A stretch of DNA of 64,000 bases from an uncultured Planctomycetia bacterium (GTDB lineage Bacteria; Omnitrophota; Gorgyraeia; CAYWPX01): assembly GCA_964460615.1 (NCBI GenBank), contig CAYWPX010000002.1, positions 71,220-135,219 of the forward strand, given 5' to 3'. Positions within the stretch are counted from its first letter, which is position 1, and each line of letters opens with the position of its first letter. Shown piece by piece: positions 153 to 62,370 of the stretch. A model generated the notes under the pieces. The model saw nothing but the letters and a program-made list of their open reading frames with translations, was not told where the DNA came from and did not search any database. Made by a program: the position numbers and the translations under genes.

Positions 153-234
153 AAGTACCTTTATTAATGGGTTAGGGTTTAAGGATAAGGGGTTATGGTT
201 AAACCCTGAACCCTATTCCTTAGTCCCTATACCG

Positions 235-1179
235 TTAAAGCTTTTCCAAAATCGCCTGATACAATAATGGCATCATTATTTCGTGATGACCTCTGATCTC
301 TATGCCTCGGCCACCGCATGAAACAGGCCTTTTAACGATGTTCACATTAGGCCTGTAGTGAGATATCATATCAAAATTTACGGTTGTAAAATCCTTAACC
401 TTTTTATATAAGTTCCTCGCTGTAGTAAGAGCCTTCAAAAAAACTTCGGGCATTATGACTGAAGAGCCAAAATTAATCAATACACCGCCGCCATTTAGCC
501 CTGAAACAGTGTAAATAAGATTCTTAAAATCCTTATATGATGCCTCTCCTATAATAGCCCCATCGCTTGACGGCTGCTGGTGCACTATGTCGGTACCTAT
601 TGCTATATGTACAGTTACCGGGACTTTTTCTTTGTATCCTGTCGCTAAAATCGACAAATTTTTGTAAGGCGCCTTTGATCTATATATAGCCTCACCGACA
701 GACCTGCCTGCGCCATAACCTGATTTTCTGCCTTTTTTTAAAGCGCTATTGATAAATTCCGCTGTCTCTCTTGCCATTCCAAAACTGCCGTCTTTTATGC
801 CGTCAGAAACTTCTTCGCTGGTCTTTCCAGCCAAGCTTATCTCAGTATCGTGTATCATGCCTGCGCCATTTAAGGATACCGCCGTAATTACGCCTTTTTT
901 CATCAGATCTATAACCAAAGGAGAAAGCCCGACCTTAATAACATGGGCACCCATCATAAGAATAACTGCTTTTTTATGTTTTTTGGCCGAAACTATTGCA
1001 TCAACAACGCTCTTAAAAGAATCTGCAACAAGAAATCCGGGTAAATTCTTATAAAAATCGCTAAATTTAGCGTTCTTTTTTGATGGTTTGGCAAAACCGC
1101 CAAGGTCCACCTTGCTATGTCTAGCAAAAAGCGAATACGTGTTCACCTTGCTTAGATCAGCTTCATTATATCTGTTCAT
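235..1179 (-). CDS. conserved protein of unknown function, possibly deoxyhypusine-synthase-like Rossmann fold; sits in the heptose/LPS cluster
   Basis: 314-aa ORF with motifs MMGAHVIKVGLSP and GEASYKD and a Gly-rich NGGGVLINFG. A TTGACA-N17-TAAAAT promoter lies directly upstream. The family assignment is only a weak recollection. Confidence 0.5.
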   Translation of the reverse strand: MNRYNEADLSKVNTYSLFARHSKVDLGGFAKPSKKNAKFSDFYKNLPGFLVADSFKSVVDAIVSAKKHKKAVILMMGAHVIKVGLSPLVIDLMKKGVITAVSLNGAGMIHDTEISLAGKTSEEVSDGIKDGSFGMARETAEFINSALKKGRKSGYGAGRSVGEAIYRSKAPYKNLSILATGYKEKVPVTVHIAIGTDIVHQQPSSDGAIIGEASYKDFKNLIYTVSGLNGGGVLINFGSSVIMPEVFLKALTTARNLYKKVKDFTTVNFDMISHYRPNVNIVKRPVSCGGRGIEIRGHHEIMMPLLYQAILEKL

Positions 1180-1199
1180 AGATTCACCTTAAACATATG

Positions 1200-1228
1200 A
1201 TTTTACTATCAATTAGCGTCTATGTCAA
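1200..1228 (-). promoter_or_regulatory. sigma70-type promoter for the 235..1179 gene (TTGACA-N17-TAAAAT)
   Basis: The minus strand reads ttgacatagacgctaattgatagtaaaat about 14 nt before RBS aaggtga and the ATG at 1179. Confidence 0.5.
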
Positions 1229-1507
1229 TGATTTTAGTATTTTAGGTATATACGCCATATTAAACAGGCTTATCACAAGATTTTCTTTACCTTAACCTTT
1301 TGATTGATTATATGTAGCTTCAAGTATCTCAAACTGCATACCCTTTAAAGTAAAACCCTTCTCTTTTTTTGGAATACACCCTGAAACAGACATTATAAAC
1401 CCCCTATTATCTTGGAAATTTTTTCTCCTTATTAAAAAATCAGAGAACGGGAGCCAGAAAATAGAGAAAAAATTATTGCTATCTCTAATACAGAATGGCC
1501 AACCGCA

Positions 1508-2551
1508 TTATTTCAGCCTGTCTTTAAATTTTCCGATCGCTTCTATCAGGTCAGCCACCTCTATTACTTTGAGGCACTTAAAATCGACCGTACAATTATG
1601 CGCCAGGCAAACCTTGCAACCTGCATCTTTTTGTATAGAGATATCGTTAATCCCCGTCGGACCCCACCTTTTTGGCCCAAGCCCCGGATCAATTCTTCCG
1701 AAAATAGAGATAACAGGAGTGCCCACTGCTACGGATATATGTACCGGGCCGGAGTCATTGGATATAAAAAGCCTGCTCAATTTTAAGACCGAGGCCAACT
1801 CCATAATAGTGGTTTTACCGCTGAGATCGATGATCTTATCTTTATTTTTGGCAAATTCCATTATCTTGCCGGAGAGCTCAGCGTCGTCTTTGCCAGAAAC
1901 GACTATAACCTTAGCCTTAAAATTATCGACCAAATAATCCGCAACCCCGGCGAATCTCTCTATCGGCCATTTTTTGGATACCGAGCTCGCTCCGGGATGC
2001 AATGTGACTATTATATCCTTGTCGCCTATCCCAAGACTTTTTAGAAAAGATCTGGTTCTTGATAGGACCACATCATCTAATTTAATATAAAGGGATCTAT
2101 CGAGTGAATTTATCCCCAGCGGCTTTAACATATCCAAAACATATTGGGATTCGCTCAGGAGGCCTTTTTCTTTTTCATGGTGAATAATTTCAGTGAGGAA
2201 TATTTTGCCTTTTCTGTCATACCCGATACGCCTTGGTATGCCGGCTAAAAATGCTATTAGATGTGTCCTCATGGTGGGGTGCAGGCAAATAGCAATATCA
2301 AATTTAATTTTTTTTAAACTAAATGCGAATTTTAATGTTGATAGAAAATTTTTATGGGTACCGTTTTTGTCATAGACTATGACTTCATCCAAATAAGGAT
2401 TATTCTTTACCAGATCCGCCGCATGCGGTCCTACCATAAAAGCTAAGTAACCGGAGGGAAACTTCTCTCTCAATGCTTTTATAGCCGGCGTCGAAAGCAT
2501 TACATCGCCGATCCTGTCAAGCCTTATAAGTAGTATACGTTTTGGGTCCAT
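1508..2551 (-). CDS. glycosyltransferase family 9 (ADP-heptose:LPS heptosyltransferase family)
   Basis: N-terminus KRILLIRLDRIGDVMLSTPAIKALREKFP is the GT9 signature, and the C-terminal half is GT9-like. It ends with a Cys motif CKVCLAHNCTVDFKC. Confidence 0.85.
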   Translation of the reverse strand: MDPKRILLIRLDRIGDVMLSTPAIKALREKFPSGYLAFMVGPHAADLVKNNPYLDEVIVYDKNGTHKNFLSTLKFAFSLKKIKFDIAICLHPTMRTHLIAFLAGIPRRIGYDRKGKIFLTEIIHHEKEKGLLSESQYVLDMLKPLGINSLDRSLYIKLDDVVLSRTRSFLKSLGIGDKDIIVTLHPGASSVSKKWPIERFAGVADYLVDNFKAKVIVVSGKDDAELSGKIMEFAKNKDKIIDLSGKTTIMELASVLKLSRLFISNDSGPVHISVAVGTPVISIFGRIDPGLGPKRWGPTGINDISIQKDAGCKVCLAHNCTVDFKCLKVIEVADLIEAIGKFKDRLK

Positions 2552-2600
2552 AGTTTTTTTTAATTAAAATCTTATAAGCTCATGGCTCATGGGTCATAGC

Positions 2601-3593
2601 TCATGGAGTTTTGTTGTTACTATGAGCTATTAGCAATCTCTTCGCTGCTTCAAAAACCTCATCCGGCGTTATAAGCCTCATGCATTCATGATTATAACGG
2701 CACTGGGCCTCTTCGCAAGGTGAGCAGATAAGATCTTTCTGGATCACTACGCTATGCTCGGCAAGAGGGCCGTATTTTTTGGGATCTGTGGGGCCGAATA
2801 TTGCAATTGTCTTTGTATTGGTGGCTGAACCTATATGCAAGGGCGCGCTATCATTTGTAACTAAAAGTTTTGCTCTTTTTATGAGAGCCGTTAATTGCCT
2901 GAGCGTCGTTCTTCCGGCAAGATTGATTATCTTATAATTGCTGATATGAGCGATATCCTGAATAAATGTATTGTCACTGGCGTCCCCTACCATAATAACT
3001 ATAGACTTAAACTCTTCCATAAGCCTGTCATTCAGAACTGCAAATCCTTCCTTGGACCAGCGCTTAATATGACTTTTTGACCCGGGGCTTATAATAACAA
3101 TATTGTTGTCCGCTCCCATTTTTTTAAGAAAGCTATCTACAAACGCTTCGTCATCTTTTGAAGTATATAAAGTAAAATTGGCATTTTTTATGTCAATACC
3201 GAGATTATGCAATTTCCAGAGGTGGATATCTTTTTTATGGCGTATCCTTTCGGGAGCTTTATGTATGGGGCTTGTATAAATCTTCGAGCCTAACAATATG
3301 GGAAAAAGCGTATTCCTCAGATCTATCACCAGGTCATACTTTATTTTTCTCAGTTTTGCAACTAAACGCCTCTTCTGCATCATAGGAGTGGTCTTATCAT
3401 AAATAATTAATTTAAAAATTGCCGGGTTATCTTTAAATAACTCTTTACCGTTCGGGCCTACCATTATATCTACACGTGCTTCCGGAAAATTATTTTTAAG
3501 CGCACACAATACCGGAGTAGTGAGAACTATATCACCGATATTACTAAGTGTTATAAGAAGAATTCTTTTAATTTTAGTTTTATCTAATTCCAT
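2601..3593 (-). CDS. glycosyltransferase family 9 (heptosyltransferase family) paralog
   Basis: KRILLITLSNIGDIVLTTPVLCALKNNFP. C-terminal motif CSPCEEAQCRYNHECM. Confidence 0.85.
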   Translation of the reverse strand: MELDKTKIKRILLITLSNIGDIVLTTPVLCALKNNFPEARVDIMVGPNGKELFKDNPAIFKLIIYDKTTPMMQKRRLVAKLRKIKYDLVIDLRNTLFPILLGSKIYTSPIHKAPERIRHKKDIHLWKLHNLGIDIKNANFTLYTSKDDEAFVDSFLKKMGADNNIVIISPGSKSHIKRWSKEGFAVLNDRLMEEFKSIVIMVGDASDNTFIQDIAHISNYKIINLAGRTTLRQLTALIKRAKLLVTNDSAPLHIGSATNTKTIAIFGPTDPKKYGPLAEHSVVIQKDLICSPCEEAQCRYNHECMRLITPDEVFEAAKRLLIAHSNNKTP

Positions 3594-3596
3594 GTT

Positions 3597-4640
3597 TTAA
3601 ATCCCTGAAAGAAATTTATTCTCATCTATCTTTTTTATAACATCCTCTACGGTTATAGCTTTCATGCATTTGAAATCATCACAGCTAAAATTATAGCACG
3701 GCACTTCACAGCCGATATCCGAGCTGATAACTACCGTATTCTCTTTGCCATATGGCCCGGTAAGATCGGGTTTTGTCGGGCCAAAAAGCGCTACGGTATT
3801 CACCTTCAGGCTATTTGCTATATGCATTGGCCCTGAATCATTTGCTATAACAAGGCTCGACATTTTTAATATTGCTCCTAACTGCTTGAGATTTGTGGCT
3901 CCGGCAAGAATTACCGGTTCTGATCTCATCATGGATTCAATGTCATTAGCTAACTCAATATCTTTTCTGGCGCCGGTTATAACGATCTTTACTCCATATT
4001 TTTCAACTAATCTGTCCGAAAGTTTTGCGAAATTTTCCCGTGGCCATCTTTTGGGATCCCAATTCCCTCCCGGGTTGATAACTACAAGGGTATCTTCCTC
4101 TTTTATACCTTTTCTTCTTAAAAGGTTTTTTGCGAATTCAGCGTCATTCTTTGATATATAAAATTCATATCCCAGCCCTTTTACATCAGCACCTAAAAAA
4201 CCGGCGATCTTAAGAAAATAATCGACCTTATGGGCTGCCTCGAGAGGGGGCTCGATGATTTCAGTCAGGAACGCATTTCCCTTTATACTAGCATAGCCGA
4301 TCCTGTTTTTTATTCCCGACAAAACTGCTATAAGCCGTCTTGTAATAGAGCGATGGAGGAATATTGCCGTATCAAACTTCAAAGACCTGATCTCATTTAT
4401 CAGCTTAAGTTTTCCGAATAAGGATCTGTGTATGCCTTTTTCGTCATATATTATAAGTTTATCTACCGAAGGGTTGAGATCCAACACCTCTTTGGTCCTT
4501 GGCGCAATAAGACATGCTATGTACGCCTTGGGATAGAGATTCCTTATGGCACGGATAAATGGCGTAGAAAAAATGACATCCCCTATCCAATTGACTTCCA
4601 CAATAAGAATTCTTTTTGGGTTAATACCGGCTTTTGTCAT
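3597..4640 (-). CDS. glycosyltransferase family 9 (heptosyltransferase family) paralog
   Basis: KRILIVEVNWIGDVIFSTPFIRAIRNLYP. C-terminal motif CEVPCYNFSCDDFKCM. The ORF-track N-terminal extension to 4790 overlaps the upstream deacetylase gene, so I take the start as the internal Met (MTKAGINPKRILIV). Confidence 0.75.
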   Translation of the reverse strand: MTKAGINPKRILIVEVNWIGDVIFSTPFIRAIRNLYPKAYIACLIAPRTKEVLDLNPSVDKLIIYDEKGIHRSLFGKLKLINEIRSLKFDTAIFLHRSITRRLIAVLSGIKNRIGYASIKGNAFLTEIIEPPLEAAHKVDYFLKIAGFLGADVKGLGYEFYISKNDAEFAKNLLRRKGIKEEDTLVVINPGGNWDPKRWPRENFAKLSDRLVEKYGVKIVITGARKDIELANDIESMMRSEPVILAGATNLKQLGAILKMSSLVIANDSGPMHIANSLKVNTVALFGPTKPDLTGPYGKENTVVISSDIGCEVPCYNFSCDDFKCMKAITVEDVIKKIDENKFLSGI

Positions 4641-5451
4641 GCGAATTTTCCGTATCCCCTCGTCTGAAATTCCTGAATTTTTTCTTAATATCTTTGACGA
4701 ATGTATAGTAACCGCTGATCTCAAACCAAAAAACAATGGGGTTATCGCAATTCCTGGTAATCTTGATCCTCGGCATAGCGTAAACGTCATTTCTCTTATA
4801 TTTAAACGGAGGATTGGTGCTTACCGCTCCCATATATCCTGAATCTTCGACGATTTTTTTGACCTCATCATTCATTCTGCCCAAAGGATAGCAGAACATG
4901 TTAACCTTTGACCCGCTATTGGCCTCGATGACACTTTTTGAACCGGCTATCTCGTCGGATAAGACCGATACGTCTTTTATCATATCCAAAAACGGGTGGC
5001 TTTTGGTATGGCTGCCGAACTGGATCCTGTCTTTTGACATACGGCGGATCTCGTCCCAAGTAAGATAATTATCTTTGCCAATATAATCGGTAATAATAAA
5101 GATCGTTGCCGGGATATCATATTTTTTTAGTATGGGATAGGCATTTTTATAATTATCTTCATATCCATCGTCAAATGTAACAGCCACGACCTTGTCCGGC
5201 ATCTCTAAATTGCTTTTAATGCGCGAAATCAATTCATCAAGCGGTATAACCGAATATTCGTTATCGCGCAGGAATTTCATATGCTTTTCAAAACTCTCGG
5301 AAGAGACGAGAAGATTATCATCCCCCGGATATTCGGCTATCTGGTGATACATCATCACAGGAGGTACGTAGATGCTCCTCAGAGCAGTGCCGATGACAGC
5401 ATAAATTGCTATAACAATTACTATTATCGTAAATAATCTTTTTAATTTCAT
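4621..5451 (-). CDS. polysaccharide deacetylase (CE4/NodB domain), membrane-anchored
   Basis: N-terminal TM helix, then VAVTFDDGYEDNY...ATIFIITDYIG...HTKSHPFL, which are NodB-homology motifs. Confidence 0.8.
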   Translation of the reverse strand: MKLKRLFTIIVIVIAIYAVIGTALRSIYVPPVMMYHQIAEYPGDDNLLVSSESFEKHMKFLRDNEYSVIPLDELISRIKSNLEMPDKVVAVTFDDGYEDNYKNAYPILKKYDIPATIFIITDYIGKDNYLTWDEIRRMSKDRIQFGSHTKSHPFLDMIKDVSVLSDEIAGSKSVIEANSGSKVNMFCYPLGRMNDEVKKIVEDSGYMGAVSTNPPFKYKRNDVYAMPRIKITRNCDNPIVFWFEISGYYTFVKDIKKKFRNFRRGDTENSHDKSRY

Positions 5452-6548
5452 ATCTCTTTTATGGTGTTTTTGTAAAAAAGTTCTATTTTCTGCGCCATTA
5501 CCGTTAAGGAAAAATTAACCTTAGCAAATTCTCCCGCTTTTTGCCTGATAGCGTCAGAAAGATTTTTGTCTTTTAGTAATTTTACTAAAATTGCCTTAAT
5601 GCCCGGCTCATCCCCTGCTTCAAAAAAAAGTCCCGTTTTGTTTTCCTCGATAATATCCTTTAGGCCTCCGGTCCTTGAAGCTGCAACAGGCACACGGCTG
5701 GCCATTGCTTCAATAGCCGCCAGGCCCAAACCCTCTTTAAGGGACGGTATGACAAATACATCGAACATCGAAAGAGCTTCCCTCGTATCCTTAAGAAGCC
5801 CGAGAAAATGCACATTTTTCTTAAGGCCATTTGACTCAACAAAGCTAACCAATTCTTCCTTAAGCCTGCCCTCGCCCACTAAGACCAAAGAAGCATTCGG
5901 AAAATCCGCTAATAAACTCTTAAAAGCCCTTAAAAGATGCATCTGCCCCTTCTCTTCGGTGAAACGTCCTATCGATCCGATAACGGGGCTGCCTGTAACG
6001 TTAAACTTAGTCTTATAATCTATCTTATTTGCCCCGGCAAAATCCCGGAATCTATCTACGTCAATGCCTGTATATATCGTCTCAATGGAGCTTGGTTTTA
6101 GGCTGAATTTATCTATAAGGTCTTTTTTTACGGAATCACTGATAGCTATCGTTTTATCTCCAAAAAATTTGAACAATACTCTCCCGGCCCGTTTCTTGAA
6201 AAAACCGTGCGCAGTTGTCACATACGGAATCTTCGCGATCCTACTTGCAAAAAAAGCCGCAACCTGAGTCACTCTGGTGTTGGCATGCACTATTTCAATA
6301 TTATTCTCTTTGATTATTTTTAAGAGGCCGAATATAGACGCAAATGTCCTCGGGCTTAGCTCCGATTTTGTATTTATATCAAGCTTGATGTGACTTATCC
6401 CGGCTTCTTTTAGCTCGCACTCTAATTCTCCGCCGTAACTCGCCACTATTACAAGATTACCCCTGTTTTTAAGCATCCCGGCGAGATTTACCACATACCT
6501 CGCTATCCCGCCCGTATTTAAATGAGTTGTTGCAAAAAGTATGTTCAT
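5448..6548 (-). CDS. glycosyltransferase family 4 (GT-B, RfaG-like)
   Basis: TGGIARYVVNLA at the N-terminus and EGLGLAAIEAMASRVPVAASRTGGLKDII (E-X7-E region) typical of GT4. Confidence 0.85.
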   Translation of the reverse strand: MNILFATTHLNTGGIARYVVNLAGMLKNRGNLVIVASYGGELECELKEAGISHIKLDINTKSELSPRTFASIFGLLKIIKENNIEIVHANTRVTQVAAFFASRIAKIPYVTTAHGFFKKRAGRVLFKFFGDKTIAISDSVKKDLIDKFSLKPSSIETIYTGIDVDRFRDFAGANKIDYKTKFNVTGSPVIGSIGRFTEEKGQMHLLRAFKSLLADFPNASLVLVGEGRLKEELVSFVESNGLKKNVHFLGLLKDTREALSMFDVFVIPSLKEGLGLAAIEAMASRVPVAASRTGGLKDIIEENKTGLFFEAGDEPGIKAILVKLLKDKNLSDAIRQKAGEFAKVNFSLTVMAQKIELFYKNTIKEI

Positions 6549-6554
6549 TTAGTT

Positions 6555-8711: not shown

Positions 8712-8722
8712 AATTTGTTTGC

Positions 8723-8782
8723 TCTAGGGTCCAGGGTCTAGGGTTTAAGGTTTTCAGCCCTACAGCCTGGAGCCGGGAGCGA
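8723..8782 (-). repeat. tandem heptamer array CTAGGGT/CCAGGGT/CTAGGGT/TTAAGGT followed by CAGCCCT/ACAGCCT/GGAGCCG; shares the 12-mer tagggtttaagg with the 168-233 element
   Basis: Read directly in the spacer between the LpxL-ELM1 stop and the GT4-GT9 start. Confidence 0.55.
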
Positions 8783-8792
8783 TTTTAGTTTT

Positions 8793-11730: not shown

Positions 11731-11765
11731 AGTTTTATCTGCAGTCAGTTTTAATTAAGTTTCTG

Positions 11766-13111: not shown

Positions 13112-13135
13112 CTATGAGCAATGAGCTATGAGCTA
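13112..13135 (-). repeat. ATGAGCT-heptad array (family B): ctatgag/caatgag/ctatgag
   Basis: Direct tandem 7-mers in the xerC-waaA spacer. Related arrays occur at about 2578-2607, 44191-44222 and 55089-55113. Confidence 0.55.
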
Positions 13136-18957: not shown

Positions 18958-19004
18958 AATTATACCCCTTTCGGTTTACGGTATTAGGTTATCGTCTGCC
19001 TTCC

Positions 19005-22293: not shown

Positions 22294-22408
22294 AATTCAC
22301 CTTAGAAATCAGATAACAGAATTCAGAAATCAGAAAAAATCATCTTTTATCCCTGCCTGCCGGCAGGCAGGTATTCTCTGTTTTCTGTCATCTGTCTTCT
22401 GTCATCTA
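22294..22408 (-). promoter_or_regulatory. nested palindromic spacer between ilvC and leuA: five AGAAATC-type heptamers, a perfect 20-bp GC palindrome, then four TCTGTCA-type heptamers
   Basis: The plus strand reads gaaatca|gataaca|gaattca|gaaatca|gaaaaaa ... cctgcctgccggcaggcagg ... tctgttt|tctgtca|tctgtct|tctgtca. On the transcript strand a U-rich run follows the hairpin about 12 nt later. Confidence 0.5.
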
Positions 22409-23401: not shown

Positions 23402-23729
23402 TTCATTTCCTCCTTAGATGAGTCCCCCAAAGTAATTTCGGGGGCGAATCATCCCGACGAATGTGATAAAATTATCGAGCATTTAGCGCAGTTATGCTAA
23501 ATGCGCAGAAAATTTTATCACTTCTTATAAGTCGGGACACTATTATTCATTATCTATTTTTTTACTCTACCGCAGAGCAAAAGCTATTCCTTATTCAATC
23601 TCAATTGCAATCTCTAAATTCTTCCGCATTGGGAAGAATTTGCCCCAACGAGTATGCTAAAATTATCGAGAGCACTTAGCACTTTAGTGCTAGTGCTAAG
23701 GGAATTTTAGCATATGTCACGAGTTGGGG
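23402..23729 (-). repeat. 328-bp structured spacer carrying two diverged copies of an approx. 90-bp nested-hairpin element (shared 12-mer aaaattatcgag), plus two smaller hairpins
   Basis: Element 1 is about 23447-23541: atcccgac / gtgataaaatt / gcatttagc..gctaaatgc / aattttatcac / gtcgggac. Element 2 is about 23641-23728: ccccaac / gctaaaatt / agcact..agtgct / aattttagc / gttgggg. There is also aattcttccgcattgggaagaatt and cccccaaagtaatttcggggg next to the ilvC RBS. Confidence 0.55.
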
Positions 23730-24203: not shown

Positions 24204-24294
24204 GATTTATTTAAACTCCGATTCGTACTTCGTCGTTCGTACTTCGTATATCGTTTCTTTTCGATGTACTATGTACGAAATACGATGTACTGCT
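24204..24294 (-). repeat. GTAC-rich tandem-heptamer element (family A copy 1) directly upstream of ilvN
   Basis: ttcgtac|ttcgtcg|ttcgtac|ttcgtat ... cgatgta|ctatgta|cgaaata|cgatgta. Confidence 0.55.
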
Positions 24295-25965: not shown

Positions 25966-26059
25966 TTAAAACCTCGCTTAAGCACTGCGTATTAAGTACG
26001 GCGTACGGCGCAAAAAACTTATTTTTCGCGATACGCTGTACACAATACGCTATACTGCT
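25966..26059 (-). repeat. GTAC-rich tandem-heptamer element (family A copy 2) directly upstream of ilvB
   Basis: gtacggcgtacggcgc ... cgcgata|cgctgta|cacaata|cgctata. Confidence 0.55.
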
Positions 26060-28537: not shown

Positions 28538-28565
28538 ATTATATCATAAAGCCCCTGTTTGTCAA
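28538..28565 (-). promoter_or_regulatory. sigma70-type promoter with extended -10 (TTGACA-N16-TGaTATAAT) for the pilin-like gene
   Basis: The minus strand reads ttgacaaacaggggctttatgatataat. An inverted repeat ttgtcaattaaataaaatgacaa lies just upstream as a possible operator. Confidence 0.45.
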
Positions 28566-29781: not shown

Positions 29782-29895
29782 GAATACCTTTTAAAAATGC
29801 TTCTGGCTGCTGGCTACAAATTATTGGCCTGCGGCTATTTTTATAAATATATCACAAAATCCTTTATAATCAAATGACTAATAATCTTCTTATAA
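29782..29895 (-). repeat. spacer with a GGC-phase tandem heptamer array (ttctggc|tgctggc|tacaaat|tattggc|ctgcggc) and a candidate promoter (TTGATT-N16-TGaTATATT) for alr
   Basis: Read directly. The minus strand reads ttgattataaaggattttgtgatatatt. Confidence 0.35.
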
Positions 29896-30591: not shown

Positions 30592-30621
30592 ATTTTTGCC
30601 TCTTGCCTGAAGCCTAAAGCT

Positions 30622-35229: not shown

Positions 35230-35355
35230 TTATCCGTTCTTCGTACGGGGTACGGCGTCGTGCGTGTTAAAAAATTAGTTATTATTTATATTTATTTTCA
35301 CGCCGTACACAATACGTTATACGCCGTACTTTTTTGTTAAGAGCCATGATCACAA
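35230..35355 (-). repeat. GTAC-rich tandem-heptamer element (family A copy 3) with an AT-rich core, directly upstream of the CPBP gene
   Basis: ttatccgttcttcgtacggggtacggcgtcgtg ... AT-rich 40 nt ... cgccgta|cacaata|cgttata|cgccgta. Confidence 0.55.
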
Positions 35356-42838: not shown

Positions 42839-42924
42839 AACCCAATGTTACAGGTTACAGATCACATGCCACAGTTATTAGATCTTAATGCAACCTATGA
42901 CTTGCGGCTTGTAACATTTTTAAT

Positions 42925-44190: not shown

Positions 44191-44222
44191 CCCATGAGCT
44201 TAGAGCCATGAGCCAAGAGCTA
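44191..44222 (-). repeat. ATGAGC-heptad array (family B copy 3): cccatgag|cttagag|ccatgag|ccaagag
   Basis: Read in the yacL-ispD spacer. Confidence 0.5.
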
Positions 44223-48226: not shown

Positions 48227-48323
48227 TATTTATCCGTTCTGCGTACGGTGTACAACGTACTGCGTGATGTAAAAATTATTTATTTTTTACGCCGTACGAA
48301 ATACGACATACGATGTACTGCTT
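48227..48323 (-). repeat. GTAC-rich tandem-heptamer element (family A copy 4) directly upstream of mlaF
   Basis: tatttatccgttctgcgtacggtgtacaacgtactgcgtg ... tacgccgtacgaaatacgacatacgatgtactgc. It shares its first approx. 22 nt with copy 3. Confidence 0.55.
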
Positions 48324-49130: not shown

Positions 49131-49149
49131 CTGTTATCTTTGCCCTTTT

Positions 49150-50958: not shown

Positions 50959-51001
50959 ATTGAATCCAATTCTAAAAATAAATTAGCCAAACAAACTATT
51001 A

Positions 51002-53419: not shown

Positions 53420-53514
53420 TTATTGCCTCCGTGTAATTCAGATGACAGAAGTCAGAAAACAGAAATCAGATTTTTTTCTGTCTTCTGACCTCTTTTTTCT
53501 ATTTTCTTTCTTTA
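53420..53514 (-). promoter_or_regulatory. 5' spacer of clpC carrying a CAGAA-phase heptamer array and hairpin (gtcagaaaacag...ctgtcttctgac), related in words to the ilvC-leuA spacer
   Basis: cagatga|cagaagt|cagaaaa|cagaaat|cagattt then ttttctgtcttctgac. It shares gatgacagaag with 22294-22408. Confidence 0.45.
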
Positions 53515-54561: not shown

Positions 54562-54572
54562 TATCAGATATC

Positions 54573-55061: not shown

Positions 55062-55088
55062 AATTACTACCCCTTTTTAGCCCATCAA

Positions 55089-55113
55089 CTATGAGCTATG
55101 AACCATGAGCTGA
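55089..55113 (-). repeat. ATGAGC-heptad array (family B copy 4) upstream of mcsA: ctatgag|ctatgaa|ccatgag|ctga
   Basis: Read 25-45 nt upstream of the mcsA start, where a CtsR-type operator would sit in Firmicutes. Confidence 0.5.
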
Positions 55114-55116
55114 TAA

Positions 55117-55758: not shown

Positions 55759-55832
55759 TTATGCTATTATGCGATTAGGTATTTTTTACCTAATTACCCA
55801 ATCACATAATCGCCCAATCGCTGATTTTTTAC
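55759..55832 (-). terminator. long imperfect nested palindrome (GCGATTA-type 8-mers x4, inner 8-bp hairpin attaggta-ttttt-tacctaat, inverse arm), followed on the transcript strand by UGUUUUUAC; candidate ilvE terminator
   Basis: The plus strand reads gcgattaa|gcaattat|gctattat|gcgattag gtatttttt acctaatt ... taatcgcccaatcgc. Confidence 0.35.
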
Positions 55833-56708
55833 TTAATACTTCACGCCTTCTTTTTTTGTAAGCTTTTTGAATTCCTGTATCAAGAACAATGTCTTCTCTC
55901 CGGGTTTTCCGCTGCCGATTATCCTGCCGTCAAGCTTGACCACCGGGATAACCTCTGCGGCAGTACCTGTAAGAAAACACTCATCTGCATTAAAAATATC
56001 GTGCCTCGATAACACCGCCTCTTTAAATGAAACTTCTTTTGTGGATTTAGCGATATCTATGACTGCATTTCTGGTTATTCCGCACAATGCGCCCATATAA
56101 GAAGGAGGTGTAGTAAGTGCGCCATTTTTAATGATAAAAATATTATCACCCGAGCACTCTACGACATATCCTGCGTTATTCAGCATAATACATTCTTCGC
56201 AACCCGCTTTAACAGCTTCAATCTTTGCCATGATATTATTTAGATAATTAAGAGATTTTATCTGAGGATTAAGCGCCTCCGGGATATTGCGCCTTGTGGC
56301 GACAGTCACCAATTCCAAGCCTTCTTTATATAATTTTTCAGGATAGAGAGTGATCTTATCCGTTATGATAATTATTGTGGCTTTAGAACATTTTCTCGGA
56401 TCGAGCCCAAGGTCCCCTTTGCCTCTCGTAACGACAAGTCTGATATAAGCGTCCGTGAGATTGTTTATTTTAAGCGTTGCAACAACAGCCTCGATCATCT
56501 CTTTTTTTGAAATAGGGATTTCAAGCATTATCGACCTGGCGGATTCATAAAGCCTATCTATATGCTCCTTAAGCTTAAAAACAAGGCTGTCGTATGACCT
56601 TATTCCCTCAAAAACACCGTCACCATAGAGAAGCCCGTGGTCAAATACAGATATCTTTGCATCATCCTTTTCATAATACTGCCCGTCGATATAAATTTTT
56701 AGTCCCAT
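55833..56708 (-). CDS. ilvE: branched-chain amino acid aminotransferase (class IV PLP enzyme)
   Basis: VFDHGLLYGDGVFEGIRSY...TRRNIPEALNPQIKSLNYLNNIMAKIEA...ECFLTGTAAEV. Confidence 0.85.
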   Translation of the reverse strand: MGLKIYIDGQYYEKDDAKISVFDHGLLYGDGVFEGIRSYDSLVFKLKEHIDRLYESARSIMLEIPISKKEMIEAVVATLKINNLTDAYIRLVVTRGKGDLGLDPRKCSKATIIIITDKITLYPEKLYKEGLELVTVATRRNIPEALNPQIKSLNYLNNIMAKIEAVKAGCEECIMLNNAGYVVECSGDNIFIIKNGALTTPPSYMGALCGITRNAVIDIAKSTKEVSFKEAVLSRHDIFNADECFLTGTAAEVIPVVKLDGRIIGSGKPGEKTLFLIQEFKKLTKKEGVKY

Positions 56709-56825
56709 AATTACCTCTTATCCCGTACTTCGCCCATCGTATTTCGTACATTGTTTTTTAAAATTATTATTTTAATTTTTTCAATATACGATATACGAAG
56801 TACAATGTACTGTTTTTTTAAAGTA
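56709..56825 (-). repeat. GTAC-rich tandem-heptamer element (family A copy 5) with an AT-rich core, directly upstream of ilvE
   Basis: ccgtact|tcgccca|tcgtatt|tcgtaca ... AT-rich ... atatacg|atatacg|aagtaca|atgtact. Confidence 0.55.
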
Positions 56826-57518
56826 CTATATCAATACTCCGTCTTTTATATTCAGAATCCTGTCAGAAACCTTTGATAGATCTTTATTATGAGTCACTAT
56901 TATGAAAGTCGTTCTATCAATTTTATTTATCTCTTTTAATAGGCCAAATACCTCTTCACTGGTCTTAGAATCAAGATTTCCGGTCGGCTCATCACAAAAA
57001 ACAATATCCGGCTTATTCAATAATGCCCTTGCTATGGCTACCCTCTGTTGTTCTCCACCGGAAAGTTCTTTTGGCCTGTGCGTTAATCTTTTTTCGAGAC
57101 CTACAAGTTTCAAGGCCTTATGCGCATCTATCCTGCAATCTTTTAAAGAGCTCTGAAAATTTTTATTAATGAGCCGCGTTATCATAACGTTCTCTAATGC
57201 GTTTAGTTCGTTCAGGAGATGGTAGAACTGAAACACAAAACCCATCCTCTTATTACGTAATGCACTTTTGGCCTTATCAGAGAGATGTTTTAGATTTTTT
57301 CCGTCAAATAAAACCATACCGCTCGTCGGCTCATCGATCCCGCCTAGTATATGGAGAAGAGTCGACTTACCGGCTCCTGACGGGCCTACTATAGAAACAA
57401 ACTCTCCGGTCTTAATTTCAAGGTCTATATCTTTGATGACATGAAGGGATTTTTTCCCTTCAAAAAATTTTTTGTTAAGTCCTTTAGCGATTATTATACT
57501 ATTCATATCTAAGGGCAT
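56826..57518 (-). CDS. lolD: ABC transporter ATP-binding protein, LolD-like
   Basis: GPSGAGKSTLLHILGG, LSGGEQQRVAIARAL, VFCDEPTGNLD. Paired with an FtsX-like permease. Confidence 0.8.
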   Translation of the reverse strand: MPLDMNSIIIAKGLNKKFFEGKKSLHVIKDIDLEIKTGEFVSIVGPSGAGKSTLLHILGGIDEPTSGMVLFDGKNLKHLSDKAKSALRNKRMGFVFQFYHLLNELNALENVMITRLINKNFQSSLKDCRIDAHKALKLVGLEKRLTHRPKELSGGEQQRVAIARALLNKPDIVFCDEPTGNLDSKTSEEVFGLLKEINKIDRTTFIIVTHNKDLSKVSDRILNIKDGVLI

Positions 57519-58680
57519 CGGTTATGTTTAAACTTGCAGCTTTATATGCCGGATAAATAGTCGCTAAAAAAGTAATAACTATACTCGAAATCGCTATCGC
57601 CAGTACATCGGACTGGATAATAAGAACCGGTATCTTATCAATATAATAAATATCTTTCGGTATATCTACAAACTGGTATTTTTTAAGGACATTGGCCAAT
57701 AATATCCCCAGACCTACCCCGAGCCCAGTGCCCCCCAATCCTATCAATGTCCCGTTTAAGGCAAATATTGCCATTATGCTTCTTTTGGTAGCGCCGATAG
57801 CCCTTAATATCCCTATGTCTTTCGTCTTTTCCATCACTGTCATAATAAGCGATGTAGCAATATTTAGGGCAGCAACAATAACTATGAGGGTCAGTATAAC
57901 AAACATCGTAAGCTTCTCCAGCTTTAGAGCGCTGAAAAAACTCTTATTTGATTCCATCCACGTCCTGATCGTATAGTCATAACCAAGTATGGCTGCAATG
58001 TTATTTTTGACTTCTTCGGGGCTGAACCTGTCTTTTATCTTTATCTCAAACCCTCCGACAAGATCCCCGAGATTTAGTATACGCCTGGCATCCGGTATAT
58101 TGATAAAAACAATATTTGCATCGTAGTCATACATACCTGAATTAAAAAAAGCGGCTATTTTAAAGTCATAACTCTTATTTGTAACCGGAGAAACCAGCGA
58201 TATTGTACTGGATATATTCGCCCCGAATTTTTTCGCCAGCTCCGAACCCATGATAACTTCGCCCTCGGAAAGCCTGAATTCACCCTTGGTTATATATTTT
58301 TTTAGCGATGTGGTGTTCTTCTCAACGTCGATATCTATCCCCCTTATTATTACCCCGGCAGTCTTGGCATTATTCACCAAAAGTGCCTGTGCATTCACAA
58401 AAGGGGCAACGCTTTCAATTCCATTTACCCTAACCAGTTCTTCTGATAACGAAACATAGTCAGAGATCCCGGCCTCTTTCTCTACCAATATCTCGGAATT
58501 GAACCCGATTATTTTTTCCTTGAGCTCATTATCAAATCCGCTCATAACCGCAAGTACTACTATGAGTGCTGCGACTCCGATTGTTATGCCGGCTACGGAG
58601 ATCAGGCTTATAACAGAGATCAATGCATGCTTTTTTTTAGCAGTCAAAAATTTAAAGCTTAGAAATAATTCCCAGATCAT
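57499..58680 (-). CDS. lolC: lipoprotein-releasing system permease LolC/E-like (FtsX family)
   Basis: N-terminal TM, a large periplasmic MacB-like domain and three C-terminal TM helices (FtsX). Confidence 0.8.
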   Translation of the reverse strand: MIWELFLSFKFLTAKKKHALISVISLISVAGITIGVAALIVVLAVMSGFDNELKEKIIGFNSEILVEKEAGISDYVSLSEELVRVNGIESVAPFVNAQALLVNNAKTAGVIIRGIDIDVEKNTTSLKKYITKGEFRLSEGEVIMGSELAKKFGANISSTISLVSPVTNKSYDFKIAAFFNSGMYDYDANIVFINIPDARRILNLGDLVGGFEIKIKDRFSPEEVKNNIAAILGYDYTIRTWMESNKSFFSALKLEKLTMFVILTLIVIVAALNIATSLIMTVMEKTKDIGILRAIGATKRSIMAIFALNGTLIGLGGTGLGVGLGILLANVLKKYQFVDIPKDIYYIDKIPVLIIQSDVLAIAISSIVITFLATIYPAYKAASLNITDALRYE

Positions 58681-58700
58681 AATTTGGTTAATGGTTGTTA

Positions 58701-59148
58701 GTGAATTGTGAATAGTTAAAAAATAAATTGTTACAATAATTTAATTAAAGTCATGGTCATTCTATTTATCTTTTCAATCTTTTCCAATAACTCGCTTAAT
58801 TTCTGATTTGCTAAATAATTTAACTTGTTAGATATTATTAATTGCGTTTCAAGTTCGGCGCTACTTGACAAAGTAATAAATAGAAATTGCTTGAATTCTT
58901 TGTTATGGTGCCTCATAAATCCTTCTGCAATATTCGAAGGCACCGAAATACTAGATCGTCTTATTTGATTAACTAACCCATAAAGCTCGTGACTTGGAAA
59001 TTCTTTTGTAATTTTATATATTTCTTCAACTAACTCTATGCCTTCCTGCCAAATCCTTAAGTTCTTGAAATTCTTTATTTTTTTTCCATTCACTATTCAC
59101 GTTTTTTGGTTTTATTACAATTCACCAACTACTATTCACTATTCACGG
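58701..59148 (-). mobile_element. candidate small cassette: four-helix-bundle IVS-family gene bracketed by inverted GTGAAT-heptamer repeats
   Basis: Left end, plus strand: gtgaattgtgaatagtt (about 58701-58717). Right end, minus strand: gtgaattgtaat, gtgaatagtgaatgg (overlapping the GTG start) and gtgaatagtgaatag (last codons of lysS). Confidence 0.3.
58731..59093 (-). CDS. four-helix-bundle protein of the 23S rRNA intervening-sequence (IVS) protein family (Avd-like fold)
   Basis: NLRIWQEGIELVEEIYKITKEFPSHELYGLVNQIRRSSISVPSNIAEGF matches the IVS-protein signature (W-Q-x-A..L....Y..FP..E.Y.L..Q.RR...S...NIAEG). The apparent start is GTG. Confidence 0.75.
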   Translation of the reverse strand: MNGKKIKNFKNLRIWQEGIELVEEIYKITKEFPSHELYGLVNQIRRSSISVPSNIAEGFMRHHNKEFKQFLFITLSSSAELETQLIISNKLNYLANQKLSELLEKIEKINRMTMTLIKLL

Positions 59149-60571
59149 TTTTTAGTTGAGGAAATAAGATAACATCTCTTATTGAATCTGCACCGGTAAA
59201 AACCATGGCAATTCTGTCAATACCTATGCCAAGCCCGCCCGCAGGGGGCATGCCGTATTCAAGTGCTCTTACAAAATCCATATCAATTCTCTCTTTTTTG
59301 CCCTGGACTTCGGCTAAGAACCTTTCATACTGCTCAATTGGGTCATTGAGTTCTGAATAGGCATTTGCCACTTCAATACCGCCTATAAAAAGCTCGAATC
59401 TTTCAGAAATTTTCGGATTGCCGGGCTTATTTTTAGCTAAAGGGCAGAGCTCGCTGAACATCTCTGTCACAAAAACCGGATGCGCTTCGGCCTTCGGTTC
59501 AATCAGTTCGGCTATGATATTTAATAGCTGGGTCTTGCTGAGATCTTTTCCTTCTACCTCGACGCCATGGCTTTTCAGTTTCGGTATCCACTCTTTTACA
59601 TCGTCATCGGGTAAAATCCCGAATGTATCTTTCATAAGATCGGTAAAAGAGACCTTCTTAAAAACCGAAAAATCAACGGTCTTACCCATGAATTCAAACT
59701 GAAGTTTCCCAAAAATCTCTTTAGCTGTATTTGTCAAAAGCTCTTCGGTGAGACGGATCATCTCGTCGCAGTCTGCATAAGCGGTATAGACCTCTAACAT
59801 TGTAAATTCAGGATTGTGCCTGATAGAGATCCCTTCGTTTCTGAAGGATCTGTTTAATTCGTAGACCCTTTCAAAACCGCCTACCAGAAGCTTTTTCAAA
59901 TATAGCTCTGGAGCTATCCTTAAAAAAAGGTCCATATCCAAAGCCTCATGATGAGTAATAAAAGGCTTTCCGGCAGCTCCTCCGGCTATGGGGTGCATCA
60001 TTGGGGTCTCTACCTCCATGTAACCCTTGGAATCCAGATATCCCCTTATACTTTTAATTATCCTGCTCCTGTCATAGAAAGCCTTTTTCACATTATCATT
60101 CACTATCAAGTCTACATACCTCTGACGGTATCTCGTCTCAACATCTTTAAGGCCGTGCCATTTTTCAGGTAAAGGCCTAAGGCTTTTTGAAAGGATCGTA
60201 AAGTTATTAACCTTGATTGTAAGTTCACCGGTCCTGGTCTTAAATATTTCTCCTTTAACGCCGATAATATCGCCTATATCAAGCTTGCTTACCAAATCAT
60301 ACTGTTCAGAGCCTACAATATCCTCTTTAAAATAAAGCTGCAACTTGCCGGTCTCATCCCTTAGATCCATAAAAGTACTTTTGCCGTGATTCCGCATAGC
60401 CATAATACGGCCTGCGGCTACGGATGGCTTCCCTTCAGAGTATGTATCTACCAGCTCTTTTACCTGATTATGGTCAAAACGCCTGCCATAAGGCTCTATA
60501 TTTCTGGCTTTTATGGCCTCAAGCTTATTAAGGCGCTCCCTTATTAATTCGTTGGAATCCTGTATTTCCAT
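59132..60571 (-). CDS. lysS: lysyl-tRNA synthetase (class II)
   Basis: N-terminal OB anticodon-binding domain, class II motifs FRNEGIS..HNPEFTMLE and GGLGIGIDRIAM. Confidence 0.9.
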   Translation of the reverse strand: MEIQDSNELIRERLNKLEAIKARNIEPYGRRFDHNQVKELVDTYSEGKPSVAAGRIMAMRNHGKSTFMDLRDETGKLQLYFKEDIVGSEQYDLVSKLDIGDIIGVKGEIFKTRTGELTIKVNNFTILSKSLRPLPEKWHGLKDVETRYRQRYVDLIVNDNVKKAFYDRSRIIKSIRGYLDSKGYMEVETPMMHPIAGGAAGKPFITHHEALDMDLFLRIAPELYLKKLLVGGFERVYELNRSFRNEGISIRHNPEFTMLEVYTAYADCDEMIRLTEELLTNTAKEIFGKLQFEFMGKTVDFSVFKKVSFTDLMKDTFGILPDDDVKEWIPKLKSHGVEVEGKDLSKTQLLNIIAELIEPKAEAHPVFVTEMFSELCPLAKNKPGNPKISERFELFIGGIEVANAYSELNDPIEQYERFLAEVQGKKERIDMDFVRALEYGMPPAGGLGIGIDRIAMVFTGADSIRDVILFPQLKTVNSE

Positions 60572-60630
60572 AATTGCCCTCTAAACCAAATTTTTGTATA
60601 TATCTATATTATCATAAAACTTAGATTATA

Positions 60631-60659
60631 ATTATATCTTAACACTACCCCCGTGTCAA
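60631..60659 (-). promoter_or_regulatory. consensus sigma70 promoter (TTGACA-N17-TATAAT) for lysS
   Basis: The minus strand reads ttgacacgggggtagtgttaagatataat about 55 nt upstream of the lysS ATG, with RBS agaggg. Confidence 0.55.
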
Positions 60660-60754
60660 TGGATAATCATCTATAAACATCTGAATATTGATTTTGATAA
60701 AACCTAATACAAAAAAAAGAATAAATGGAGAAATTTAAAGAAGATTTAATAAAG

Positions 60755-62305
60755 TTAGGAAGTTCTGTTCAAATTTAACTGTTTATTGGGCTTAAACAGC
60801 CAGAAAAAACTAAAAATCGAAAATATCGCGCACAATAAAGCATAAATATCTCCGAAGGACCTATAGAATGACCATTCCCTAGAAATAGTTATTTCGGCGG
60901 TTTTATAACCCTCTATAAAAATCTCTTTGCCGAGGCTATTTTCCACCTTGGCAAATATTGCTCCCCTGGGATCAATAAAACACGAGAGCCCTGTATTTGC
61001 CGCCCTTACAACATTGACTCGATTCTCTACCGCTCTAAACACAGAGGCCTGCGCATGCTGATAAGGCGCAGATGTATCGCCAAACCATGCATCATTTGTT
61101 ATATTTATGATAAAATCGGCTCCATTTCTTACAAATCCATTGACCAATTCAGGGAATATATCCTCAAAACAAATAGTAACTCCGAAATCAATACCTTCTT
61201 TAAGGTTGAATATGGTATATTTTGTCCCGGGTGAATATTCCCCGACGGGATTCGGAATAAGTTCGCGTATAAAATACAAATTTGTCTCCAGAGGTATATA
61301 CTCTCCGAAAGGCACTAAATGCTGTTTACTGTACTTATCCAATACTTGACCCTTCGATTGTAAAATAACGCTATTGTAAATTTTTTCAAAATAATCCCCG
61401 AATGTAATTGTGGGGCTTCCGATAAGAAGTGGCATCGAAAGTTCATTGGACAAATCTTTTACGGCTTCATGGATATCTTTGTCGTCCTCCAAAAATCCCG
61501 GCACAGAAGTCTCGGGCCATACGATCAGTTCCGGGTTATCGCGGCTGGCTTCTTTGGTCAAGATAATATGCTTATCGAGGATTAATTTTCTGGTTTCAGG
61601 GGTGTTGGACCAATACCAGTTGAGCGGGATATTCCCCTGAATTACAGAAAGTCTGACTTTTGGGCCTTCCGGCTTTTCCCAAAGCCTAAAAAATCCATAT
61701 CCCAAAACTATTATGAGTACAATACCTGTAAAAATATAAGCGCTTTTTAAATGAGCCCAGGATCTTTTTTTATCTATAAATCTGTTTTTTACCAATATAA
61801 AAATCAGGTAATTAACCATTACAACCAAGCCGGAAACCATATATACCCCGCCTATATCGGCTATCTGGATAATTGGCAGTGTAAGATACTGCGAATACCC
61901 TAAAAGCGCCCAGCTTATGCCGGTAAGTACATAGTTTCTGGTTATTTCTAAACCGACCCAAAAGGCCGAAACCACGACTAAAGACAGCAATTCATTTTTG
62001 TCCGGAAGCAAAAATATTTTTTTGAGCACATAACCAAATACCAAGAAGTACAATCCGCCATAAAAAAATACAAAATACAATAAAGGCGTAACCTTATAAA
62101 TCCAGTAACATGTTAGACCAAAAAATAGAACACCTGATATATATGAGATAAACAACGCATTTTTTATAGACCTGGAATAAAAGACCGCTATCATAAGAGG
62201 GACCAGGCCCAAAAAGGCAAGAAATTCCAAATTTGCGTTTGGGAAACTCAATGTAAGCAGGATACTGCTAAAAATAGCTAAAAGAATTTGATATATAGTT
62301 TTCAT
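60755..62305 (-). CDS. lnt: apolipoprotein N-acyltransferase
   Basis: Eight-TM N-terminal region plus a C-terminal CN-hydrolase domain (VRLSVIQGNIP...WPETSVP...ICFEDIFPEL). Confidence 0.85.
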   Translation of the reverse strand: MKTIYQILLAIFSSILLTLSFPNANLEFLAFLGLVPLMIAVFYSRSIKNALFISYISGVLFFGLTCYWIYKVTPLLYFVFFYGGLYFLVFGYVLKKIFLLPDKNELLSLVVVSAFWVGLEITRNYVLTGISWALLGYSQYLTLPIIQIADIGGVYMVSGLVVMVNYLIFILVKNRFIDKKRSWAHLKSAYIFTGIVLIIVLGYGFFRLWEKPEGPKVRLSVIQGNIPLNWYWSNTPETRKLILDKHIILTKEASRDNPELIVWPETSVPGFLEDDKDIHEAVKDLSNELSMPLLIGSPTITFGDYFEKIYNSVILQSKGQVLDKYSKQHLVPFGEYIPLETNLYFIRELIPNPVGEYSPGTKYTIFNLKEGIDFGVTICFEDIFPELVNGFVRNGADFIINITNDAWFGDTSAPYQHAQASVFRAVENRVNVVRAANTGLSCFIDPRGAIFAKVENSLGKEIFIEGYKTAEITISREWSFYRSFGDIYALLCAIFSIFSFFWLFKPNKQLNLNRTS

Positions 62306-62370
62306 TCTTATGATTAGTTCTTTTGCCCTTTTCTATTCAACATTCTGTCGCACCATTCACTATTAACTAT

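Follow-up and report, generated by a model that had tools for sequence, protein, structure and literature searches.

The stretch of DNA considered here, 64,000 nt of contig CAYWPX010000002.1 (assembly GCA_964460615.1, positions 71,220 to 135,219; hereafter the window), encodes 56 long open reading frames (ORFs), every one of them on the minus strand. Its intergenic spacers contain short arrays of imperfect 7-nt units that are often followed by their inverse, and in one spacer such a pair encloses a gene of the PF05635 family. The genes are housekeeping genes of diderm type and include lipid A/lipopolysaccharide-core enzymes, the Mla system, an ilv-leu-aro cluster, aminoacyl-tRNA synthetases, ClpC, and SecA. 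The GC content is ~40% and the GC skew is uniformly negative; a one-strand run of all 56 genes (window 1–64000) with a monotonic cumulative GC skew represents an unusually strong strand bias for a diderm. Scans anchored on IlvB place the genome within Candidatus Omnitrophota, where the closest species representative shows 75% IlvB identity, a value that no metagenome contig exceeds. Only one contig with the same IlvN was found; it matches part of the window at 100% identity and provides no variation for a comparison of close strains.

The 7-nt units had been noticed in an initial annotation of the sequence, and all of the heptamer strings quoted there are present where it placed them. Autocorrelation over 30 spacers (3199 bp) confirms an excess of period 7: identity at lag 7 is 0.382, whereas dinucleotide-shuffled sequence gives 0.284 (z = 11.9). 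The signal returns at its multiples, lags 14 (z = 6.4) and 21 (z = 5.4), with |z| ≤ 3.1 at every other lag. Coding DNA, correctly described as free of the pattern, gives no signal at lag 7 (0.252) and shows only a weak period 3. Considering individual spacers of at least 40 bp (n = 28), a lag-7 tract is present in 13/28 (score ≥ 8) to 17/28 (score ≥ 7) against a shuffle mean of 0.23–0.46, and the same scan detects tracts of other lags in 0–3 spacers and lag-7 tracts in 3/579 coding 100-bp chunks. The arrays are thus common, as had been stated, but their real share is about half to 60% rather than almost every spacer, and the spacers bearing sigma-70 promoter matches are free of them.

The words are not different in each spacer, as was initially assumed, but recur in families: GTAY+3 nt (termed GTAC; five spacers), GCTCAT (four), GTGAATA (three), TCTG+3 nt (two), and ACCCT (two). 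The unit comprises a conserved core of 3–6 nt plus a freely varying linker. The suggestion that an array followed by its inverse generates long nested hairpins holds well, since ~10 spacers fold as imperfect stems of 18–38 bp. In the mRNA sense the commonest form consists of the stop codon of the preceding gene, a 5′ arm of 3–5 heptamers that begins 1–26 nt after this stop, an A/T-rich loop of 8–30 nt, a 3′ arm made of the inverse array, and the Shine-Dalgarno (SD) sequence with the next start codon; in these ~10 spacers no U tract follows the stem. Gene-less elements are ~60–115 nt long with a short A/T loop or a GC hairpin at the loop position, and some arrays are solo.

The GTAC family is represented by five hairpins, all on the minus strand. 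They are located at the ilvB/ilvN junction (24222..24291; GTACATC GTATTTC GTACATA GTACATC, loop, ACGATAT ACGAAGT ACGAACG ACGAAGT), at the ilvD/ilvB junction (25976..26058; minimum free energy, MFE, −36.3), at 35243..35330 (30-nt A/T loop), at 48240..48319, and at 56724..56812 (28-nt A/T loop, 38 pairs, MFE −30.4). The five are aligned in register from a common AGCAGTAC directly after the stop codon, and the elements at 35243–35330 and 48227–48323 also have in common a non-periodic 3′ flank, GTACG.AGAACGGATAA. Because of this register and of the flank common to two of them, the five elements are regarded as copies of one family and not as independent slippage events.

The TCTG family is represented on the same strand by a hairpin at 53439..53493, in which TCTGATT TCTGTTT TCTGACT TCTGTCA is paired with GAGGTCAGAAGACAGAAA (19 consecutive pairs, MFE −31.1), and by a nested element at the ilvC/leuA junction (22304..22407; MFE −42.1). 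The outer arms of the latter (AGATGAC AGAAGAC AGATGAC AGAAAAC at 22374–22407; TTTCTGA TTTCTGA ATTCTGT TATCTGA at 22304–22336) retain the invariant TCTG core and enclose a perfect GC hairpin (22352–22371), which bears out the nesting that was initially described.

Substitutions are distributed unevenly within the units. GTA is invariant in 20/20 pooled units of the GTAC 5′ arms and all 34 substitutions fall in positions 4–7 (P < 2e-7), while TCTG is invariant in 14/14 units of its family (P about 6e-4). Within single arrays of the window the core-plus-linker pattern is not significant (P = 0.34), significance being attained only with pooled units or in the arms of the gene-bearing cassettes described below.

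The GTGAATA-type units of the initial annotation are the inverted arms of such a cassette (58701–59148, minus strand), which separates lysS from an ftsX-like gene. The heptamer arms enclose, in the position of the "loop", a 120-codon gene (58731..59093) encoding a four-helix-bundle protein of the PF05635/TIGR02436 family, known as "23S rRNA intervening-sequence protein" and Avd-like. Its product matches PF05635 with 2.6e-38 and 130.9 bits (cut-off 33.8) and TIGR02436 with 123 bits (cut-off 24), and its nearest solved structure is Xanthomonas campestris XCC0516 (PDB 2GSC, 1.4e-20). The 3′ arm (58701..58716; sense ..CTATTCACAATTCAC..) is 94% complementary to 59131–59146, and the 5′ arm region (59088..59148) contains two copies of AAC.AAAAA.CGTGAATAGTGAAT that are 92% identical, the proximal one providing the GTG start codon of the PF05635 gene. 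None of the window elements is inserted in a 23S rRNA helix: they lie between protein-coding genes, and an Rfam scan of the window gave 0 matches and no rRNA. The number of units differs between this cassette and its orthologue at the same site in another genome (locus L172; loci from other genomes are designated by L and a number).

The cassette also affects the preceding gene. The distal 5′-arm copy (59132–59148) provides the last codons and the TAG stop of lysS (..GTG AAT AGT GAA TAG). In L172 lysS terminates ahead of the array, which indicates that the insertion remodeled the C-terminus of LysS, a housekeeping protein.

The PF05635 family is very large, one search giving 4,265 homologues at E ≤ 1e-5, and the association of its genes with arrays extends far beyond the window. 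A tblastn search against plasmids gave 41 records with PF05635 homologues, mostly from Nostoc, Calothrix, and other cyanobacteria, from which ten taxonomically spread matches were picked before their flanks were inspected. Short-period arrays occur on both sides of the gene in 9/10 of these loci, and in at least seven the array after the gene is inverted relative to that before it; they include Nostoc edaphicum (AGTAGGG x8 | TCCCTAC x5), Anabaena 90, Geminocystis, Stanieria, Riemerella, and Gemmatirosa (8-mers). The Azospirillum copy (L171) lies within a large subunit (LSU) rRNA gene and is a true intervening sequence (IVS). Altogether, arrays on both flanks are found in 14/20 distinct PF05635 loci vs. 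5/75 control genes (Fisher p = 1.5e-8), the controls being other genes of the same loci, with 0/24 of them having arrays on both flanks outside this window. At least one flank bears an array in 19/20 PF05635 loci, and, taken over all 20 cassettes, the two flanks are inverses of each other (median score 15.75 vs. 8.0 in controls, p = 8e-8). The 20 loci span Omnitrophota, Planctomycetota, Cyanobacteriota, Bacteroidota, Gemmatimonadota, and Alphaproteobacteria. Arrays and inverse arrays thus border a unit able to carry a PF05635 gene, at many unrelated junctions and in rRNA.

Some of these loci deserve mention for their context. On plasmids of N. edaphicum (L163) and Calothrix (L166) the cassette is found between functionally linked genes (ribonucleotide reductase beta|alpha and secretion-system genes, respectively) and runs opposite to them, so that cassettes are commonly but not always oriented with the host operon. 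On plasmids of Pseudanabaena (L167) and Anabaena sp. 90 (L168) a PF05635 gene with long heptamer arrays is placed between cas6 and cas4, and the CRISPR-cas locus of L168 also carries the type I-D gene cas1d. A "23S rRNA IVP" is reportedly among the linked domains in a CRISPR-association screen; lodging in operon junctions could yield a PF05635-CRISPR association without a functional link.

The word is inherited together with the gene. A homologue 78% identical to the window protein occurs at the same lysS|ftsX junction (L172) and, given this site, that cassette has been inherited vertically, while homologues with 69–72% identity are found elsewhere (mutL|miaA, after a dockerin-like gene, and in a tRNA cluster). 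At these four different sites the homologues of 69–78% identity all have GTGAATN upstream and NATTCAC downstream. Synonymous sites are saturated among them (pS 0.63–0.85) and dN/dS is 0.05–0.14, which means that the protein is functional and that conservation of the non-coding word exceeds neutral expectation. The words of homologues at 55–62% protein identity differ (ATATCGC, TCGTGAC, GCGTACN), and across phyla the words are not more alike than expected by chance (9 matches vs. ~5.6 expected). In four Planctomycetota orthologues at groEL|dnaJ the linkers have drifted around a retained GCGT/ACGC core. The cores are constrained: in the cassette arms 81/126 columns are invariant vs. 63.8 expected (P < 1e-4). 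Near-identical cassette copies exhibit no polymorphism in unit number, although they differ by just 0–5 single nucleotide polymorphisms and the comparison has no power.

The distribution of the arrays was surveyed with a crude gene caller in IlvB-anchored genome loci. Strong intergenic lag-7/lag-14 peaks are present in some Omnitrophota (L002, L006, L007, L009, L018, L022) and absent from others, and similar peaks occur in loci labeled Nitrospinae, Nitrospiraceae, Desulfotomaculum, Deltaproteobacteria, Proteobacteria, and Firestonebacteria, so the pattern extends beyond this contig and into several phyla. With 205 tracts, lag 7 is the commonest short period over 2.03 Mb from many phyla (lag 6, 90; lag 8, 70; lag 9, 148), and 155/205 of the lag-7 tracts are intergenic. 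Co-directional spacers hold 144/149 in the raw count, yet a per-locus control leaves a marginal P of about 0.04. Eight-nucleotide units also exist, AAGATTCT / TAATCTTC in an Omnitrophota-like locus (L105, 7666–7800) and GGCAGGAG / CTCCTGCC in the flanks of the Gemmatirosa cassette (L170), and their occurrence means that period 7 is strongly preferred and not absolute.

This architecture is consequently not undescribed, as had been proposed, nor is it specific to this organism. Descriptions of heptamer repeats between genes date back to about 1990. Heptanucleotide repeats are reported to be the most abundant class of long simple sequence repeats (SSRs) in most prokaryotic genomes. Xanthomonas and Nostoc have an excess of them in intergenic DNA, where some form inverted pairs, and Calothrix, Microcystis, and Beggiatoaceae have words of their own; neither an origin nor a function is generally accepted in these papers (PMC4679880, PMC4692102). 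The precedents initially invoked, direct-repeat operators and slippage-prone tracts, miss the inverted arms and the anatomy related to PF05635 and IVSs.

The ilvB|ilvN junction allows a comparison of the same site across relatives. In about 15 of them the two genes are separated by −4, −1, or +1 nt, whereas in the window, L002, L006, L090, L097, L102, L105, and L018 the distance is 50–180 nt and is nearly all array plus inverse array. The word differs from genome to genome, with L105 using 8-nt units. In L103 a PF05635 gene bracketed by array and inverse lies exactly at ilvB|ilvN and in L124 another is placed likewise at ilvD|ilvB. Since the junction is near zero in relatives and filled with differing words elsewhere, the heptamer elements are dispensable additions that have been gained repeatedly.

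Gene-less and gene-bearing forms are alike in architecture and in type of site, and the ilvB|ilvN junction itself holds one or the other form depending on the genome. In the metagenome-assembled genome JBDRAM01 they also have their words in common: the cassette L184 is flanked by ATTTCGC/ATATCGC and by about 23 units of GCGACAT/ACGACAT, and the gene-less hairpins of the ilv spacers (L002) are built from the same units (ATTTCGC, ATATCGC, GCGACAT, ACGACAT).

Taken together, these observations make it somewhat probable that the 7-nt arrays are the arms of IVS-like stem-loop insertions, mostly gene-less, some with a PF05635 gene, and probably processed at the RNA level. The full-length form comprises an array, the PF05635 gene, and the inverse array; the gene-less form an array, an A/T loop or GC hairpin, and the inverse array; and a few arms stand alone. 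Each genome holds a few word families, every one dispersed to several sites, and the elements sit inside transcription units, from a stop codon to the next SD, at junctions that overlap or are near zero in relatives. By analogy with rRNA IVSs, the transcribed arms may pair into a long imperfect duplex (18–38 bp) to be cut by the host RNase III, an enzyme known to excise the IVSs of Coxiella, Salmonella, and Leptospira (PMC4990558). Cutting would remove the insert from the RNA, with remnants of the stem staying attached to the cistrons on either side, and would account for the tolerance of insertions in operons and in rRNA. The arms may lengthen or shorten by whole units through slippage, as suggested by the window cassette vs. 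L172 and by Coxiella strains. More speculatively, the pentameric PF05635 protein might recognize the repeated cores, typical arms having 4–5 units.

Several observations weigh against this interpretation. More than 95% of the arrays in the sampled loci are gene-less, and PF05635 genes occur in 2/161 ilvB-anchored loci vs. arrays in 41. No decayed PF05635 remnant was detected in any other spacer of the window, and in view of this the descent of gene-less elements from cassettes is suggested by architecture, type of site, and one word match within a genome. For 4/5 word families of the window no cognate PF05635 gene was found among the matches listed (120 of 4,265). The Pseudanabaena cassette has direct and not inverted arrays. 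Covariation was assessed in the GTAC family by comparing own-arm with other-arm pairing directly, as RNAalifold on a MAFFT alignment lost the register; the arms lack element-specific compensatory changes (own 10.8 vs. other 9.8 of 16; 30/120 permutations equal or better). There is no consistent excess of G-U pairs on the sense strand, folding energies and G-U counts in sense vs. antisense being inconsistent between elements. With neither covariation nor a G-U excess, selection on the stems at the RNA level is not supported. Causality might also run in the opposite direction, with PF05635 genes lodging preferentially in pre-existing heptamer hairpins, and the unit length of 7 nt (occasionally 8) is not accounted for by IVS-like insertions.

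A broader proposal, which is advanced only tentatively, is that stand-alone PF05635 proteins and the heptamer repeats of intergenic DNA together make up a single module, widespread and horizontally mobile. The homopentamer would read its cognate 7-nt word, each subunit recognizing one core; the arrays would act as self-excising RNA stems, enabling the module to reside in operons and rRNA genes; and gene-less arrays would be orphan sites. If true, it would account for the short tandemly repeated repetitive (STRR) sequences of cyanobacteria, GGGAATC in Xanthomonas, and TAACTGA in Beggiatoa, and would give PF05635 its first function. To our knowledge, the family has a solved structure and no established role outside diversity-generating retroelements (DGRs).

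Among the alternatives, the arrays could be a pure mutational by-product: slippage would favor 7-nt units in dispensable spacers, the inverse would arise by hairpin-templated (quasipalindrome) copying, and there would be neither a mobile unit nor a function, the presence of PF05635 being incidental. The predominance of lag 7 among short-period tracts fits such an origin, and so do the differing words at the same junction in different genomes, the 8-nt versions (L105, L170), and the variation in unit number between the window and L172 and among Coxiella strains (PMC4990558); polymerase slippage over a contact of ~7 nt is put forward in the literature on these repeats (PMC4679880, PMC4692102). 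Slippage alone does not predict one word in register at five sites with non-periodic ends in common, nor substitutions that avoid the core, a word kept with a protein lineage past synonymous saturation and across insertion sites, or an association with one gene family at p about 1e-8, and we consider this origin unlikely.

A function in the mRNA is less probable still. The arrays would serve as platforms for a general single-strand nucleic-acid-binding protein (e.g., a cold-shock protein, one per heptamer) that tunes translation or stability of the adjoining cistrons. Their location from a stop codon to the next SD within operons, the resemblance of the core-plus-linker anatomy to arrays of binding sites, and the common orientation of the GCTCAT solo arrays are in agreement with it, and the idea of CspB binding each heptamer has been discussed (PMC4679880) and a post-transcriptional network proposed for TAACTGA repeats. 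The presence of at least five unrelated words within 64 kb is hard to reconcile with one sequence-specific binder, at the same junctions many relatives lack a spacer altogether so that arrays are not needed for expression, strand asymmetry is inconsistent, and the inverse arrays and the link with PF05635 are left unexplained.

It is highly improbable that the hairpins represent conventional intrinsic terminators, attenuators, or RAYT-mobilized palindromes of the repetitive extragenic palindromic (REP)/bacterial interspersed mosaic element (BIME) type: they are intergenic imperfect palindromes within co-directional spacers, and stem-loops that stabilize upstream cistrons are well known from between genes (PMC4423207), but no heptamer hairpin is among the terminator-like sites of the minus (sense) strand, the hairpins occur inside obligate operons such as ilvB-ilvN, REPs are not made of 7-nt tandem units, and the 56 window proteins include neither a Y1/RAYT nor any other transposase. 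Intrinsic termination as such is ruled out by 3′ arms that run into the SD and start codon with no U tract.

The remaining arrays of the window, all on the minus strand, are gene-less. The four solo arrays of the GCTCAT family have the same orientation relative to transcription (4/4) and are located at 2578..2597 (ATGACCC ATGAGCC ATGAGC; tract score 10.5), 13114..13135 (TAGCTCA TAGCTCA TTGCTCA; 12.5), 44191..44219 (immediately 3′ of a stop codon; lag-7 score 7.5), and 55089..55108 (score 8). Both members of the ACCCT family are hairpins: one of ACCCT/GGGTT type at 173..229, identified by sequence and fold, folds on both strands, and that at 8721..8780 (score 14, MFE −27.2) has AAACCTT AAACCCT AGACCCT GGACCCT as its 3′ arm. 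A solo GTGAATA-like array at 62351..62370 (ATAGTTA ATAGTGA ATGGTG; score 8) has ATAGTGAATGG in common with the 5′ arm of the cassette. Other arrays include a weak one at 29800..29835 (GCCGCAG GCCAATA .. GCCAGCA GCCAGAA; lag-7 score 7.5), one adjoining a separate perfect hairpin at 30596..30620 (GCTTTAG GCTTCAG GCAAGAG; score 8), and one that forms part of an imperfect hairpin at 42847..42866 (TGTGATC TGTAACC TGTAAC).

Hairpins of other kinds are also present. The ilvN|ilvC spacer (23402–23729, 328 nt) contains two copies of a non-heptamer hairpin element of ~85 nt each, which have CCCGACGAATGTGATAAAATTATCGAG in common (85% identity over 27 nt, 191 nt apart) and a long stem in each copy, with no Rfam match. 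Related GC-rich hairpins, CCTGCCTGCCGGCAGGCAGG and CCTGCCCTACAGCAAAGCCGTAGGGCAGG, occur at 22352–22371 and 18975–19003; the former occupies the loop position of the heptamer-armed element at ilvC/leuA, and a comparable GC hairpin lies within the ilvB|ilvN element of L006.

Two perfect 12/12 sigma-70 matches (TTGACA-16/17-TATAAT, one with an extended TG) are found on the minus strand at 28538–28565 and 60631–60659; they are the only two on the gene strand, lie in long spacers without heptamer arrays, and probably represent real operon starts of the otherwise uninterrupted one-strand gene run. The ORFs 3597–4790 and 4621–5451 overlap by 170 nt as listed (4621–4790), and the downstream gene, encoding a glycosyltransferase, probably has its true start internally.

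Linking heptamer repeats with PF05635 turns two open questions into concrete experiments. Elements of this kind would split operon transcripts, alter the ends of genes (here the last codons and stop of lysS), and inflate "intergenic" DNA, and where PF05635 genes have been marked as "associated" with CRISPR-Cas or similar systems, lodging in an operon junction may be the simple reason.

Comparison with known systems places the elements closest to the S23p-bearing IVSs of 23S rRNA, with partial likeness to three other groups. The window protein is homologous to Avd, a DGR accessory protein, through PF05635 (weak DivGenRetAVD match; PMC10053308) and the pentameric four-helix-bundle barrel; unlike Avd, its family has no reverse transcriptase, template repeat, or variable repeat nearby in any locus examined. 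REP/BIME and families similar to miniature inverted-repeat transposable elements (MITEs) are likewise dispersed intergenic imperfect palindromes of ~100 nt in co-directional spacers, in which a gene-less majority may relate to a rarer gene-bearing form. The window elements differ from them in having arms of tandem heptamers, no accompanying RAYT or transposase, and a gene for an Avd-like four-helix bundle instead of a recombinase. Of the features typical of MITEs, inverted arms are present, no target-site duplication was recognized, and the sole gene-bearing relative encodes a non-recombinase.

With the heptameric SSRs (Calothrix/Nostoc STRR, Xanthomonas GGGAATC, Nostoc GGGGAYT, and TAACTGA of Beggiatoaceae and cyanobacteria) the window arrays have in common tandem 7-nt units, an intergenic location, one word at many loci, occasional inverted pairs, and a patchy phylogeny suggesting horizontal spread. 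As in STRR sequences, the units are arranged head to tail, are enriched in non-coding DNA, and have words recurring at several loci, here within the 64 kb sampled. They differ in that the arrays of the window are short (3–5 units), imperfect, mostly paired in hairpins, and made of several words per genome with no dominant one, long and near-perfect arrays being found only in other loci (L077, L167, L184). The PF05635 homologues on plasmids are concentrated in Nostoc, Calothrix, and related cyanobacteria. PF05635 and IVSs are not mentioned in the two dedicated heptamer-repeat papers (PMC4679880, PMC4692102), and in the literature searched heptameric repeats beside an S23p ORF have been noted only for Coxiella (PMC4990558).

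In the IVS of Coxiella burnetii, terminal inverted repeats are cut by RNase III and the ribosome is unharmed; a variable number of heptameric repeats is found upstream of the S23p ORF, next to its start codon, and the first of these repeats marks the cleavage site (PMC4990558). The resemblance to the IVSs of Coxiella, Leptospira, and Xanthomonas includes the ORF family (PF05635; in the window, 58731–59093 only), terminal inverted repeats that enclose the insert (cassette arms 94% complementary, gene-less stems of 18–38 pairs), heptameric repeats beside the ORF start as in the Coxiella and Azospirillum IVSs, and the existence of both ORF-bearing and ORF-less forms. Unlike IVSs, the window elements are placed in mRNA operon junctions, are mostly gene-less, and belong to several coexisting word families; the window ORF is under strong purifying selection, whereas that of Coxiella is reported to be decaying and probably untranslated (PMC4990558). 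What is new here is that IVS-like, heptamer-armed elements, most of them gene-less, populate the operon junctions of an Omnitrophota genome.

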